Source: Escherichia phage Skure
Direction: 5' to 3' (one strand)
Sequence record: MK672798.1
Length of the DNA: 59,463 nucleotides
Part shown: piece after piece, positions 31,866-50,233 of the stretch
How positions within the stretch are numbered: the stretch's first letter is position 1
Layout: the number at the start of each line of letters is the position of its first letter
Translations under genes and position numbers: made by a program
Notes under the pieces: model-generated
Seen by the model: the letters and a program-made list of their open reading frames with translations, nothing else
Databases searched by the model: none
Told to the model about the DNA's origin: nothing

Positions 31866-32588
31866 TCAAACGTGTTTGCTGTAAGCGTTATCCATAAATT
31901 CAGTGTAACCCTTAGCACGGAGTTTACACGCTGGGCATTCCCCGCAACCGTATCCCCAGTCATGCAAAGTTCGACGAATGCCGTTATAGCAGGTGTGCGA
32001 CTGTTCAATAACTGTGGTTAAGAAACCAACCTTGTCCGCCAGCTCAAACGTTTCAGCTTTGTTTAAACGCATAAGTGGGGTAACAAAATGAATATCTGTT
32101 TCATATCCAACGTTTAAGGTAGCTTCAAGCAAATCAACAAACTGCTGACGGCAATCCGGATAACCGCTATAGTCCGTTTCACATACGCCTGTAACCACAT
32201 ATCGGGCTCCGACCTTCTGCGCGTAAGCGTGCGCGGTTGTCAGAAAAAGCGCATTACGATTTGGCACAAAACTTGCCGGAAGGTTATTGTGCTGTTCGTG
32301 ATGCTCGTTGACATCACCTTCGTTCCCGATCAAAGCGCTATTACCAATCTGTTTCAAAGCTGGTAATTCGAAGACAACAAACGGGACATTGTGCTCTTTA
32401 CAAATTTGATTAGCACAAGCCAGCTCAATGTTATGACGTTGACCGTATGCAAAACCAATAGCGTAAACTTTATCATAGTTATTAAGCGCAAGACCTAGAC
32501 AAGTCACGCTGTCCTGACCGCCAGACAGGACCACAACGGCGGAGTTATGATTTTTTACAGGGAACACCAGTTTATCTAATTTATTCAT
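31866..32588 (-). CDS. queC: 7-cyano-7-deazaguanine synthase
   Basis: 240 aa; PP-loop VVLSGGQDS; C-terminal zinc ribbon CxxCxxC (GCGECPACK); no fused amidotransferase domain. Confidence 0.9.
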   Translation of the reverse strand: MNKLDKLVFPVKNHNSAVVVLSGGQDSVTCLGLALNNYDKVYAIGFAYGQRHNIELACANQICKEHNVPFVVFELPALKQIGNSALIGNEGDVNEHHEQHNNLPASFVPNRNALFLTTAHAYAQKVGARYVVTGVCETDYSGYPDCRQQFVDLLEATLNVGYETDIHFVTPLMRLNKAETFELADKVGFLTTVIEQSHTCYNGIRRTLHDWGYGCGECPACKLRAKGYTEFMDNAYSKHV

Positions 32589-32589
32589 T

Positions 32590-32787
32590 TTAGAAACCTT
32601 TAAGGCTAATATTAAGGTTAACGACTACTTGTTCAACTACATCTTCACAGGTCACCTGACGCTTGTGAATTTCAAGTTCCGAATATATTTTCTTTGAAGC
32701 TGCGCGACATAGGGCGTCATTCAATTCGTCTTGTAGACGTTGAATCTTGTGCATAAGCACTACAGTTTCTTCATTCATTTTCCACAC
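32590..32787 (-). CDS. hypothetical small protein inside deazaguanine cluster
   Basis: 65 aa between queE and queC. Confidence 0.35.
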   Translation of the reverse strand: MWKMNEETVVLMHKIQRLQDELNDALCRAASKKIYSELEIHKRQVTCEDVVEQVVVNLNISLKGF

Positions 32788-32983
32788 CTTTAATATAACA
32801 AGGGTTGATTGTTACATTTGACATTACAATTGGATGATTACGTGCTCCAATTGTACTAACGTGATTAATATCTAATTCTACATGCACACCCTGCATAGTA
32901 GCATGGGCAATTGCAGAATTAAGTTTTTCTACCAGCTCAGTAATCATTTCCTGATGCTGTTTTGCTTCTTCTAAAGTGATCAT
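32771..32983 (-). CDS. hypothetical small protein inside deazaguanine cluster
   Basis: 70 aa; stop overlaps next start. Confidence 0.35.
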   Translation of the reverse strand: MITLEEAKQHQEMITELVEKLNSAIAHATMQGVHVELDINHVSTIGARNHPIVMSNVTINPCYIKGVENE

Positions 32984-43909: not shown

Positions 43910-44431
43910 TTAACCATTGTTGGAAAATTCACCGTGCAAAATTGCACGCATTTCCTTCAGCCATTGTGTCGCTTTATTTTTACCTTCATCATTAAATGGA
44001 AAATACCTATAATAGTTTTTACCATTCAGTCGAATCTGCGCTAACCAACTATTGCTGGTTTTAGATTTGTTATGTGTAAGACCTTTAACCCCGCTTGAAT
44101 TGTTACTGTATTTAAATCTATTATGTGCGTTCTGACTAGAATCGCAAGCCCTCAAATTGTATTGAGCATTATTCAGTTTATTGCAGTCGTCATGATCAAT
44201 TTCTTCAGGTTCTTCATCATAGAGCATTTTCCAGATTATGCGGTGGACAAAATATGAAATGCCATCAATCTTTGTTCTAAGATGACCAGTTGTATGAACC
44301 CATCCAACGCAAGATCCCTTTGGAGCTCTGTTGCTTCTATGGATCTTCCATGTTAATGCACCCGTCGACGGATCATAGTCAAATAGCTCCAGAAGCTGCT
44401 CTTGTGTAAGGTGTATAGGCTTCGCTTTCAT
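43910..44431 (-). CDS. HNH homing endonuclease with AP2-type DNA-binding domain
   Basis: 173 aa; HRIIW...EIDHDDCNKLNNAQYNLRACDSSQNAHN (HNH) followed by SGVKGLTHNKSKTSNSWLAQIRLNGKNYYRYF (AP2-like). Confidence 0.75.
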   Translation of the reverse strand: MKAKPIHLTQEQLLELFDYDPSTGALTWKIHRSNRAPKGSCVGWVHTTGHLRTKIDGISYFVHRIIWKMLYDEEPEEIDHDDCNKLNNAQYNLRACDSSQNAHNRFKYSNNSSGVKGLTHNKSKTSNSWLAQIRLNGKNYYRYFPFNDEGKNKATQWLKEMRAILHGEFSNNG

Positions 44432-44898
44432 GACATGAGTGAACCCCTCTCAATCAAGTAGCATTTCGCGTGCGCTTTAAAAATAATGCGGTAGTCATCA
44501 AGACTAATTTCCGCGCGGATGGAATCTTTAACTTCATACCACTGCCATTCACCATTACTGAAGACAACCGGATTAAGTGGTAGAACAACCTTCCATCCTT
44601 TACGTTCTATTTTATACATCAGAACTGGATATCTGCCAAGCTCTTTAGCAGATTGAACAGTCTGCTTCCACCATGTGTTTACTTGTGGTGTAGCATGGTT
44701 TTTTACTTCAACTGCATGGTGACATGTATTGCTAATGTCGCAACCACCGACCGCACTTTGATTCTGGTTACGCTGAGCAATAGGTTTTTCCGGTAACTGC
44801 ATCCCCAGCTCTGCGTAGATTTCGGCATAAATTGCATTAAAGAAATCACATACTTCCCGCTCACCGCGTTGACCTTTAGCGCGAATATTTACTGCCAT
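44428..44898 (-). CDS. PD-(D/E)XK nuclease, possible Holliday-junction resolvase-like
   Basis: Start at ATG 44898 (GGAGA RBS); KGQRGEREV...GGCDIS...VEVK pattern; function guessed. Confidence 0.4.
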   Translation of the reverse strand: MAVNIRAKGQRGEREVCDFFNAIYAEIYAELGMQLPEKPIAQRNQNQSAVGGCDISNTCHHAVEVKNHATPQVNTWWKQTVQSAKELGRYPVLMYKIERKGWKVVLPLNPVVFSNGEWQWYEVKDSIRAEISLDDYRIIFKAHAKCYLIERGSLMS

Positions 44899-44938
44899 GT
44901 TTGTCTCCATAACTTTAATGTAAAACACTTCATAAAGA

Positions 44939-44967
44939 ATTTTATATTGAAGTTCTGTTGATCTCAA
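44939..44967 (-). promoter_or_regulatory. sigma70-like promoter (- strand): -35 TTGAGA, 17-nt spacer, -10 TAAAAT
   Basis: Hexamers read on - strand at 44967-44962 and 44944-44939; lies between terminator and the 44898 start codon. Confidence 0.4.
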
Positions 44968-44969
44968 GG

Positions 44970-45003
44970 AACAAAAAAGCCCAGGCATAAGGATTCCTGG
45001 GCT
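44970..45003 (-). terminator. rho-independent terminator (- strand)
   Basis: Plus-strand AGCCCAGG-(10 nt)-CCTGGGCT; on - strand followed by TTTTTTGT. Confidence 0.5.
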
Positions 45004-45315
45004 CTCTTGATTGTCGGATAGCTTACTTTGACTGCCGTCTTCGTCTATCCTGGCCTACTTGTACAGCCTCGCCAAAGGCTGGTGACGGTTTGGTACATCT
45101 GGCGCCGTCGCGTTAAACATCGTTCACATCGTTCAGTAAGTTGCGGGTTTACCCTGTCCGCTCCAGGAAGCCCAGCGAAAGTAGTTGCTGTAAGGAGGTA
45201 CAGCTACCGCTTTCAAGGGCTTGAGTTAAGCATCGTTCACTAAGTTAATGTTGTTAAATTGTTAAACCTCGTTAACTGTGGTTATCTTAAAGGATGCAGT
45301 CTTGAATGGCAAGCT

Positions 45316-45633
45316 TCAATTTTGCGCGGTTCCCTTTGCCGCTTTTGGTGCTAAAGTACCATCATTTAACATCAACTCAAAACCTGTTACTTGATCGGTT
45401 GGAACAATAGGGTAATTCATAATAGCCATGTGAATACAATGTCCACCGTCACATTCCTCGATGTATTCATTACCCCAATAGTATAAATGCCCATCTCTTC
45501 GAATATCCATTGCCGTTGGGAAATCTACAAGAATTCTTTTAATTTCTTTTCGTCCTTCTTTATGCAGATTAGTTTCAATACGGATAAGCTCCGCATAAAT
45601 TGCTTCACAGATAGTGTTTACAATTCCCATCAT
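45316..45633 (-). CDS. hypothetical protein
   Basis: 105 aa, Cys/His-containing. Confidence 0.4.
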   Translation of the reverse strand: MMGIVNTICEAIYAELIRIETNLHKEGRKEIKRILVDFPTAMDIRRDGHLYYWGNEYIEECDGGHCIHMAIMNYPIVPTDQVTGFELMLNDGTLAPKAAKGTAQN

Positions 45634-46068: not shown

Positions 46069-46293
46069 ATGGTCATGCTGAATAAAGTATATAGCACAAT
46101 GGGCGCGGATTATAAAGTTGTACGTCACCCGCGTACTGGTAAATTTGAAGCATACATCCGTCCAATGGGTGAAGGTTGGATGTATTACGGTACTTATGAT
46201 GACGCTGAGAAAGCTTATGAAGAAGCGGAAAGTGCGGCGGAAGCATCCGAAATTATGGCAAGGTACGACGTCGACGATTACTATTTCAACTAA
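46069..46293 (+). CDS. small acidic protein on opposite strand (moron-like)
   Basis: 74 aa; GGAGG RBS 7 nt upstream; followed by intrinsic terminator; antisense ORF 45988-46296 looks non-protein-like. Confidence 0.4.
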   Translation: MVMLNKVYSTMGADYKVVRHPRTGKFEAYIRPMGEGWMYYGTYDDAEKAYEEAESAAEASEIMARYDVDDYYFN

Positions 46294-46297
46294 CAAT

Positions 46298-46326
46298 AAA
46301 GGGCCGAAAGGCCCTTTATTTATTTG
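46298..46326. terminator. bidirectional terminator between primase gene (-) and small + strand gene
   Basis: AAAGGGCC-gaaa-GGCCCTTT followed by ATTTATTT on + strand. Confidence 0.6.
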
Positions 46327-49404: not shown

Positions 49405-49560
49405 ACCTACCTCCTAACAGCACTATACACAATCCATAGTAAGCCAGCCACAATTATTCCACCTGAAGTTATGATGTGAGCGGATTGTTAACATATAACC
49501 ACATGTGATGGAAAGTTTTGGGTAGGAATAGTTGGTGCTCCGCAGTTTGCACAATGTGAC

Positions 49561-49600
49561 GGAAAGTTTTGTGAGTTTTGCAAAGTTTTGCGAAGTTTTG
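49561..49600. repeat. four tandem (A)AGTTTTG repeats at about 10-bp spacing
   Basis: ggaaagttttg tgagttttg caaagttttg cgaagttttg; a fifth copy at 49513-49520. Confidence 0.6.
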
Positions 49601-50075
49601 TGGTGCCACTGTTGCTAAAAACTTTAATAAAAACAATAAGTTGGTGCAGTAAGTTTTTGCGTTTTGGGGTAAAACGCATTTTTTACCCTAATACCCTAAT
49701 CCCGACTGTTAGTAAAAAACGTATATAAATCAATAAGATAGATACTAAATGAATAGTGAATGGAATGGGTAGAAATCCAAATGATGGAAGTGGAATAAAT
49801 TATTCCTACTTGATGGAATAATGGAATCGGTACTCTGGAGCGCAAAAACCTAAAACTTTCAGTCAACAGACTAAAAACGGATAGAAACTAAAAGTTAATA
49901 AGTAATACCATAAATATATATAAAATAAGGATTTATTAGTAATGTATATAGTACCTATTGGTATTTATTTGAATGTTTTTGGGTCTGCAATAAAAAGTCG
50001 CAAAACTCACAAAAAGTGAAAGAATACAATTCGTGACAGGATTGTTAATGGAATATGGTGTATGGATATACAGTA

Positions 50076-50113
50076 TTATTCCAGATTCCGGAATAATTGG
50101 AATAATGGAATAA
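50076..50113. repeat. GGAATAA repeat cluster with embedded 10-bp palindrome ATTCCGGAAT
   Basis: TTATTCC-agattcc-GGAATAA-tt-GGAATAA-t-GGAATAA; related palindrome GGAATAA-a-TTATTCC at 49792-49806. Confidence 0.6.
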
Positions 50114-50233
50114 ATTATTGAACTATTGTGGTCGGAAGGTATATCAAGCTATAATGCGCTTAATCGCGGGATATTGGAGGAGGACTTTATTGCGCGGTTA
50201 ACCGGACCAGTAGGAGGGCTGGCCCGGAGTAGT

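Follow-up and report, generated by a model that had tools for sequence, protein, structure and literature searches.

Introduction

Several regulatory RNAs of enterobacteria and their phages are transcribed from a promoter of their own in the final part of an operon and share the operon's terminator, among them the 3'-untranslated-region (3'-UTR)-type small RNAs MicL and DapZ and the phage regulators P22 Sar, P1 C4 and P4 CI. Others (RNAIII and RsaE of Staphylococcus aureus, RoxS of Bacillus subtilis, ChiX of Escherichia coli) occlude ribosome-binding sites (RBSs) with a C-rich seed directed against the Shine-Dalgarno (SD) sequence. Long structured noncoding RNAs of lytic phages have seldom been characterized. 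In the lactococcal phage c2 (Ceduovirus), the replication origin is a noncoding region between two promoters that gives rise to the noncoding transcript PE1-T, and length and structure are critical (PMC7150918). Here we analyze an element in a 59,463-nucleotide (nt) stretch of DNA from Escherichia phage Skure (MK672798.1), referred to below as the window, which corresponds approximately to the whole genome of a Seuratvirus (Queuovirinae) siphophage infecting E. coli. Its sequence suggests that the minus strand of 44973-45279 is likely to constitute a gene in its own right, whose product is a highly structured, noncoding RNA about 300 nt long. This RNA would represent a new, previously unannotated family that is so far confined to the genus Seuratvirus.

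The locus resembles the MicL/DapZ type in having a promoter in or after the upstream open reading frame (ORF), a U-tailed Rho-independent terminator, a conserved loop that is exposed, and no coding function. However, the phage RNA is three to five times longer, has several domains, a pseudoknot and repeats, and shows no relation to these RNAs in sequence or in Rfam; no target with extended complementarity was found for it. With RNAIII, RsaE, RoxS and ChiX it has in common a CCUCC-type motif in a hairpin loop, complementary to the SD sequence, but the phage loop is the full 9-nt 3' terminus of 16S rRNA, is present in a single copy and belongs to a lytic phage. As in c2, which is also a lytic siphovirus, two promoters of the same direction bound a noncoding region, and the transcript, a few hundred nt long, would be structured and untranslated. 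The early and late modules that flank the c2 origin diverge from each other, whereas the element described here is inside a replication cluster, and the two have no sequence similarity. Full-text literature searches returned no mention of the RNA, and the paper on Bas25 escape mutants is likewise silent.

Compensatory Changes Support a Structured Noncoding RNA

A first-pass annotation of the window, made from the letters alone, had pointed to a GC-richer noncoding island between minus-strand genes and had proposed that it might encode a structured RNA or a regulatory leader. The island is borne out at 44973-45312 (GC fraction 0.53, compared with about 0.40 in the flanks; 0.53 at 45000-45199 and about 0.39-0.42 on either side). 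A structured RNA is supported as well: the element is noncoding and conserved, has a promoter-like sequence at one end and a terminator at the other, and contains several helices with compensatory changes.

The structure was predicted with RNAalifold from an alignment of twelve distinct versions of the element from phages and metagenomes. It comprises 69 pairs, and 98.9% of the cells in the alignment form standard pairs. Twelve pairs (23 cells) have changed on both sides, compared with 4.0 pairs in column shuffles, and none of 500 shuffles reached the observed number. Slid controls, in which the partners were shifted by one to three columns, gave only 1-2 compensatory pairs. The compensatory changes occurred in at least four lineages, namely Salmonella phage STP-SP5, the L008 clade, the 3' domain of the VogelGryff-type phages and a paralogous module in a metagenome contig (L020, see below). 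Where only one side of a pair had changed, pairing on the minus strand was maintained by G.U, which is present at 15 pair positions, compared with 2 for A.C. This bias is better explained by an RNA from the minus strand than by one from the plus strand or by double-stranded DNA. Relative to shuffles, the fold z-score was -3.65 for the minus strand and -2.11 for the plus strand.

The most informative single comparison is with STP-SP5, where the element is about 80% identical to the window at the nucleotide level, with differences throughout. The adjacent upstream protein is only 44-45% identical in amino acids (aa) between the same two phages, indicating purifying selection on the RNA itself.

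This comparison also effectively excludes a small protein gene. Candidate ORFs do exist, among them the Arg-rich plus-strand ORF at 45028-45243 (71 aa, TTG start) listed in the first-pass annotation and 21-aa and 27-aa ORFs on the minus strand. The 71-aa ORF has no RBS, as had been noted, and is not conserved: its counterpart in STP-SP5 has 48 aa, and only TVWYIWRR is common to both before the frames diverge. The 21-aa ORF stays open in STP-SP5, with its middle read in another frame. The insertions and deletions between the two phages (1, 2, 1, 3 and 8 nt) include lengths that are not multiples of three, so that frames shift while the nucleotides stay conserved, and no reading frame is conserved between window and STP-SP5 on either strand. 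The substitutions are compensatory in stems rather than synonymous. Records MZ501110 (bas25_0058), PP596835 (NGRRMQZB_64), PP627278-82 and others annotate one to three "hypothetical proteins" inside the element, on either strand; these are probably spurious calls.

We could not assign the RNA to a known family. Rfam 15 (4227 models) gave no match at gathering thresholds anywhere in the window, and searches of 44700-45600 and of a 71-nt slice (45120-45190) at E ≤ 10 returned chance-level scores only (12-17 bits, compared with the 80-270 needed). The covariance-model scan proposed in the first-pass annotation thus places the element outside the described families, while covariation supports a structured RNA. 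ARAGORN predicted no tRNA or tmRNA in the window.

From 5' to 3', the predicted RNA consists of an A/U tail, the repeat R1, a 55-nt hairpin with the loop ACCUCCUUA, a pseudoknot, the repeat R2, a two-hairpin center, a 3' hairpin and the terminator (Table 1).

Table 1. Predicted features of the element and its immediate neighbors. Coordinates refer to the window; sequences of RNA features are given on the RNA.
Feature	Coordinates	Strand	Details
Upstream gene, function not assigned	45316-45633	-	105 aa
Sigma70-like promoter of the RNA	45284-45312	-	TTGCCA (45312-45307), 17-nt spacer, TAAGAT (45289-45284)
Predicted noncoding RNA, about 300-305 nt	44973-45279	-	Fold z, covariation, no conserved ORF
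A/U-rich 5' tail, predicted mostly single-stranded	45247-45279	-	Four UUAAC repeats
Direct repeat R1	45225-45246	-	AACUUAGUGAACGAUGCUUAAC; kept in STP-SP5 save for an 8-nt deletion at the 5' edge
Long three-tier hairpin (helix 3)	45168-45222	-	55 nt; apical loop 45191-45199 is ACCUCCUUA
H-type pseudoknot	45143-45167	-	CCUG-GA-GCGG-A-CAGG-RUAAAC-CCGC; S1 CCUG/CAGG, S2 GCGG/CCGC
Direct repeat R2	45112-45142	-	AACUUACUGAACGAUGUGAACGAUGUUUAAC; 9-nt core tandemly doubled
Invariant center, two hairpins	45064-45109	-	GACGG(16-nt loop)CCGUC at 45084-45109; CAGCCUU-UGGC-GAGGCUG at 45064-45081
3' domain hairpin, helices 9 and 10	45016-45050	-	Internal loop keeps GAA / AGUA
Intrinsic terminator	44973-45002	-	GCCCAGG, 10-nt loop, CCUGGGC, U6; stem 44979-45002, T-run 44973-44978
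Separate promoter of the downstream gene	44939-44967	-	TTGAGA-17-TAAAAT; outside the RNA, marks the boundary
Downstream gene, PDDEXK (RusA-like) nuclease	44428-44898	-	

Transcription Signals and Boundaries of the Unit

The bounding sigma70-like promoter and intrinsic terminator of the first-pass annotation were both found. The candidate promoter begins 4 nt past the stop codon of the upstream gene, and transcription would start near 45277-45279. In STP-SP5, both hexamers are nearer to the consensus (TTGACA-17-TAATAT), with a spacer of the same length that differs in three bases. The terminator can function in the minus orientation only, because the T-run follows the stem only when read on that strand. 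It was missed by a pattern scan owing to its loop of more than 8 nt. STP-SP5 keeps it with a different loop, and the VogelGryff-type phages have another terminator in its place. Together with the G.U pairs, the orientation of promoter and terminator marks the minus strand as the transcribed one, and their arrangement defines a predicted unit of promoter, about 300 nt and terminator, all on this strand.

A second sigma70-like promoter follows outside the unit. With 10 of 12 consensus matches it is the top match of the 19-kb region scanned, and it is present in all versions. The suggestion of a regulatory leader is weak in view of the strong terminator and this separate promoter before the next gene, and also because the next gene differs between relatives: it encodes a RusA-like nuclease in the window, an HNH protein in VogelGryff-type phages and an extra 100-aa protein in STP-SP5.

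Host RNA polymerase would start at the sigma70-type promoter after the upstream stop codon and end at the intrinsic terminator; the RNA would be made as a transcript of its own or as the 3' part of the primase-operon mRNA. In the region scan, the upstream genes were not separated from the element by a terminator, and transcripts reading through from these genes must therefore include it. This raises the question whether the element acts in cis instead, as a 3' UTR or boundary element that only stabilizes the upstream mRNA of the primase operon and terminates it ahead of the next transcription unit, with a fortuitous internal promoter. Besides the uninterrupted read-through, the modest score of the promoter fits this explanation, as does the terminator, since only three strong minus-strand terminators, this one included, are present in 36-55 kb. 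However, invariant loops, a pseudoknot and covarying helices over 300 nt far exceed the needs of termination or 3' protection, and Klebsiella phage K9PH25C2 does with a gap of about 100 nt that contains only a terminator. In addition, the promoter hexamers are conserved, and even improved in STP-SP5. We therefore regard a purely cis-acting 3' UTR as improbable.

The Apical Loop of Helix 3 Matches the 3' End of 16S rRNA

In helix 3, six of the 21 pairs are compensatory, and 99.2% of the cells are paired. In STP-SP5, AAGCCC/GGGCUU is replaced by GGGUCU/AGACCU and GAAAG/CUUUC by GCAAUUG/CAAUUGC. The L008 clade has one change from C-G to U-A, with an apparent C.A intermediate in slur01. Folded alone, the hairpin had z-scores of -5.5 (window) and -3.6 (STP-SP5), and CCUCC(U) was unpaired in both.

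While the stem below covaries, the loop ACCUCCUUA is invariant in all twelve versions. The nine bases that end E. coli rrsH, i.e., the 3' end of 16S rRNA, have the same sequence, and the window also matches the next base of the spacer. The small hairpin GCTGTA-AGGAGG-TACAGC of the first-pass annotation is present (45187-45204) and forms the tip of the 55-nt hairpin. Its interpretation as a sequestered SD sequence has to be reversed: since the minus strand is transcribed, AGGAGG is not an SD sequence on the RNA. Instead, its complement CCUCCU lies in the apical loop and is unpaired in the window and in STP-SP5.

Among the mechanisms considered, we tentatively prefer a trans-acting regulator or decoy that works through this anti-SD loop, a possibility suggested by the sequence that we would put at clearly less than even. 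The exposed loop would pair with the RBSs of particular phage or host mRNAs and block the initiation of translation. Alternatively, the RNA may be a decoy for a factor that recognizes the 16S 3' tail. The repeated GAACGAUG motifs might then be protein-binding or processing sites.

A more specific version, which we consider rather unlikely, is that the RNA is a phage-made mimic of the 16S rRNA 3' tail, produced from its own promoter in infection. The ACCUCCUUA loop would soak up SD sequences, or a host factor or toxin that recognizes the 16S 3' end, so that translation would be re-programmed or a ribosome-directed defense neutralized. The repeat-flanked modules of hairpin and pseudoknot would constitute an expandable decoy platform.

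Pseudoknot, Central Region and 3' Domain

The pseudoknot downstream of helix 3 is compact and has an A-rich third loop. All 56 cells of its eight pairs are paired across seven versions, including the paralogous copy in L020, and four of the eight pairs are compensatory, compared with 0-2 in slid controls. S1 is changed to CCAG/CUGG in the L020 copy, and S2 to GUGG/CCAC in STP-SP5 or CUGU/ACAG in the L020 copy.

The topology and size of the pseudoknot (4-bp S1, 2-nt L1, 4-bp S2, A-rich 6-nt L3 RUAAAC) are like those of the preQ1-I riboswitch aptamer and other small H-type pseudoknots, and the name of the phage subfamily derives from 7-deazaguanine modification of DNA. This candidate (RF00522) was rejected: its covariance model gave no match, and L2 is a single A, so that the ligand-pairing C and the pocket are absent. 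Moreover, the phage motif is 140 nt from the terminator and beside no start codon.

The central region contains 27 and 15 nt that are identical in all versions, and one G-C to G.U change in STP-SP5. The pairs predicted for its first hairpin (45084-45109) have no support from covariation. In the 3' hairpin, five of nine pairs are compensatory in the VogelGryff-type version, where GGAUAG/CUAUCC is replaced by AAAUAAGG/CCUUAUUU, and the inner 3-bp helix covaries too. Its internal loop has GAA on the 5' strand and AGUA on the 3' strand in each of the two diverged versions, whereas the helices on either side covary. This internal loop may be similar to the loop E / sarcin-ricin (bulged-G) signature. 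Motifs of this type are typical docking sites for protein or RNA.

The 5' tail contains UUUAACAAUUUA (45255-45266), a 12-nt sequence that also occurs in the boxA region of E. coli rrn. Like the rrn and lambda boxA elements, this rrn-leader identity is located near the 5' end of a long untranslated transcript. The boxA consensus is GYTCTTTAANA, and point mutations at C4 abolish function (PMC5725501). We rejected a boxA here. Its position near the 5' end fits, but GAGGTTTAACA in the window matches the consensus at 8 of 11 positions with mismatches at positions 2-4, including C4, and only the less critical 3' half of boxA is covered by the identity. To match the consensus, the STP-SP5 sequence requires two gaps of one base each, and a 12-nt match over the 2.6-kb rrn locus is not rare (P about 0.04).

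Direct Repeats and Duplicated Modules

The repeated motif of the first-pass annotation, given there as two copies (around 45117-45130 and 45230-45240), is present in three exact copies and belongs to a longer unit. The 9-mer CATCGTTCA occurs exactly three times in the window (45118, 45127 and 45231, plus strand), always inside the element, compared with about 0.45 exact matches expected for the whole window by simple arithmetic. When one mismatch is allowed, the genome-wide count of 15 equals the 14.9 expected by chance, so that the signal lies in the clustering of exact copies. The true repeat units are 16-22 nt long, with three copies of GTTAARCATCGTTCAC and two to three of CATCGTTCAsTAAGTT, and one 9-nt core is duplicated in tandem (2.1 copies). 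The three to four copies have the same orientation and irregular spacing (9, 104/113 and 36 nt). Dru_SM1 has three tandem cores instead of two.

A modular build is apparent from the metagenome contig ERZ1026901 NODE-154 (L020, 1136-1262), where an extra module of about 110 nt is inserted at R2. It is a diverged duplicate of the three-tier hairpin, the pseudoknot (CCNG-GA-NNNN-A-CNGG-AUAAAC-NNNN) and AACUNNNUUAAYGAUG, flanked by the repeat variants UUAACGAUG and UUAAUGAUG. The loop of the second hairpin is UUCGU and thus not anti-SD.

These observations bear on the possibility that the RNA binds protein and acts as a scaffold, sponge or anti-defense decoy, with AACUUAsUGAACGAUGyUUAAC units as binding or cleavage sites that flank duplicable modules. 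Such an RNA may be likened loosely to type III antitoxin arrays or RNA anti-CRISPRs. The modular build, with the second L020 module inserted exactly at the repeat, and the two or three tandem copies of the 9-nt core agree with it, as does the restriction of the element to a single genus, since anti-defense genes are often accessory in this way. Nevertheless, no partner protein was identified, the gene downstream varies between phages, and the structure model of the upstream 105-aa protein is unusable (predicted local distance difference test score, pLDDT, 43). We consider a protein-binding scaffold or decoy doubtful on balance.

Two known kinds of repeat RNA were compared specifically. Type III antitoxin arrays consist of repeats of about 34-36 nt, followed by a terminator and a gene for a ToxN-family endoribonuclease, and the order of promoter, RNA, terminator and nuclease gene at the present locus is reminiscent of ToxIN. 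A type III toxin-antitoxin (ToxI-like) system was nevertheless rejected, as only a 9-nt tandem and dispersed 22-nt repeats are present, which differ from the antitoxin repeats in unit and spacing, and as the downstream PDDEXK nuclease gene has its own promoter and gives way to other genes in relatives. With the type I-E CRISPR repeat of E. coli, the element has only GGAUAAACC in common. This likeness is short, and no CRISPR-DR family of Rfam matched.

A Replication Origin as the Main Rival

The main rival to a trans-acting RNA is a transcript-primed or transcript-activated replication origin, in which the structured RNA forms an R-loop or primer in cis, similar to the origin transcript RNA II of ColE1; a phage initiator, for instance the neighboring primase-helicase, would use the GTGAACGATG repeats as iterons. 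We regard both the origin and the iterons as unlikely, if worth serious attention. The architecture, with two promoters of the same direction flanking a noncoding stretch, fits the description of c2 (PMC7150918). The element lies within the replication module, its direct repeats vary in copy number, and the AT-rich 5' tail adjoins them. An analogous noncoding unit, with AGTGAAC repeats and a shared 12-mer, occupies this position in Providencia phage PSTCR7.

The PSTCR7 unit (L012, 1863-2390) is about 500 nt long, lies between the primase and RusA-like genes and contains several promoters and a terminator. Its repeats of the AGTGAAC type are ACCAAGTGA, and the 12-mer AACTTAGTGAAC is common to the unit and to R1 of the window. 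No overall homology between the PSTCR7 unit and the element was detectable.

Against an origin, the repeats of the element are irregularly spaced and do not recur in a far more classical candidate at 49405-50230. In addition, the element is missing from related genera that have the same replication genes, and the RNA ends at an efficient-looking terminator. The region 49405-50230 is AT-rich and noncoding, spans about 800 nt upstream of the primase operon and is located at the minimum of the cumulative GC skew and at the divergence point. It is rich in iterons, with five copies of GAAAGTTTTG (49510-49600), many of (A)TGGAAT(AA) (49757-49830 and 50048-50119) and two of TACCCTAA. STP-SP5 has a gap at the equivalent position (32080-32906). 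This region is probably the replication origin and/or an early control region of the phage.

The closest described iterons near a large primase-helicase gene are those of P4. The type I iteron of P4 ori/crr, TGTTCACC, is bound by the alpha primase-helicase and has the hexamer GTGAAC in common with the repeat core of the element. Both loci have short direct repeats near such a gene, but here only three to four irregularly spaced copies are present, and they are embedded in a covarying RNA fold. A P4-alpha-like origin-binding primase was rejected: the protein of the present phage is an NrS-1-like archaeo-eukaryotic primase (AEP)-type primase-polymerase with DUF3987, and no P4 protein was among its PDB hits.

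Distribution of the Element

The homologue set comprised 34 phage records, three IMG/VR contigs and eight metagenome contigs. All 34 records found by blastn of phages are of the Seuratvirus type, and in the window the element region is 99-100% identical to the E. coli phages GottfriedDienst, phiG7, Seurat and CAjan. The scan of IMG/VR and metagenomes returned Seuratvirus-like contigs only, plus one chance match in a MarR gene (L018). Nothing similar was found in E. coli genomes and plasmid collections, and a pattern scan of the GTDB representative bacterial genomes gave 0 matches. Searches with blastn, nhmmer and a custom covariance model detected no remote homologue in 80 loci (379 kb) around RusA-like genes of related phages and no paralogue within the window; the covariance model did not recover the diverged second module of L020.

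At the position of the element, phage 9g and a relative with 64% RusA identity (L026) have coding sequence or only a short gap, and K9PH25C2 has its terminator-only gap. The occurrence in Seuratvirus-type contigs only suggests a genus-level accessory. The comparison with related phages proposed in the first-pass annotation therefore yields an element that is conserved and covarying within Seuratvirus and absent from related genera.

The VogelGryff-type phages share more than 99% identity with the window in the 5' two-thirds of the element. From about 45059 leftward, they have a diverged homologous 3' domain and their own terminator. In five of these phages, an HNH homing-endonuclease gene follows directly after the RNA (L002 2361-3010, L003 2361-3010, L016). 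The 3' domain of the RNA, the terminator and the RusA-like gene (61% aa identity) are all replaced by diverged homologous versions. The replacement resembles a co-conversion tract whose donor lineage is unsampled, with a breakpoint inside the RNA, after GAGGCUGUACAA.

Gene Neighborhood

The minus strand carries the genes from about 23 kb to 53 kb, and the element lies between two of them. The setting is a replication module, with the NrS-1-like primase-polymerase with DUF3987 helicase 1 kb upstream and with RNase H, ligase and RusA-like nuclease nearby. The upstream 105-aa protein always adjoins the element. Its final 20 or so codons (45316-45340, K[GD]TAQ[ND] end) are far better kept than the rest of this fast-evolving protein. 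They overlap the sequence just upstream of the -35 hexamer, so that a promoter or UP-element constraint may act there.

An HNH_3 homing-endonuclease gene (43910-44431) lies between the RusA-like and dUTPase genes and overlaps the former by 4 nt; Seurat has no gene at this position. On the plus strand, a 74-aa gene (46069-46293) has a weak match to the AP2 domain. A small gene beside the primase of PSTCR7 was considered as its homologue and rejected, as the two show no homology. Between the convergent 74-aa and primase genes lies a perfect 11-bp palindromic hairpin (46295-46320; AATAAAGGGCC GAAA GGCCCTTTATT), which the Seurat record annotates as a bidirectional terminator.

Discussion

Several points weigh against a stand-alone, trans-acting RNA. 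The diversity of the versions is low and amounts effectively to three or four lineages, so that some covariation counts register one event more than once. Because the versions used to assess the structure also served to predict it, the percentage of paired cells and the G.U counts are biased. A structured origin transcript would give identical covariation, and direct repeats that vary in copy number are a typical feature of binding sites on DNA as well. The promoter of the RNA matches the consensus at 9 of 12 positions, and promoter-like matches as a class are no commoner than chance in the region scanned; its support therefore comes from position and conservation. Full-text literature searches returned no transcript maps for Seuratvirus. 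As for the anti-SD loop, there is only one such site per 300 nt. Within the phage, mRNAs show no complementarity beyond generic SD pairing, and their matches to segments of the RNA are at most 12 nt long. The best RBS match of the loop, 10 nt at the RBS of the ligase gene, does not co-vary in STP-SP5.

Even with these reservations, we consider a separate gene for a structured noncoding RNA the likely explanation of the locus. The genus holds five phages of the BASEL collection (Bas21-25) as well as Seurat and CAjan, which makes the RNA directly testable. If the 16S-identical loop acts as proposed, the RNA would provide a new phage route to disturb the initiation of translation or to decoy a ribosome-directed factor. 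Should the less probable mimicry of the 16S rRNA 3' tail prove true, it would be an RNA-based mechanism of host takeover or anti-defense that has not been described for lytic coliphages. If the RNA is an origin transcript instead, it would define the start of replication in enterobacterial phages with an NrS-1-type primase-helicase. Either way, the element would be a new RNA family for Rfam, and it marks a spot of spurious "hypothetical protein" annotations in the genomes of this genus.

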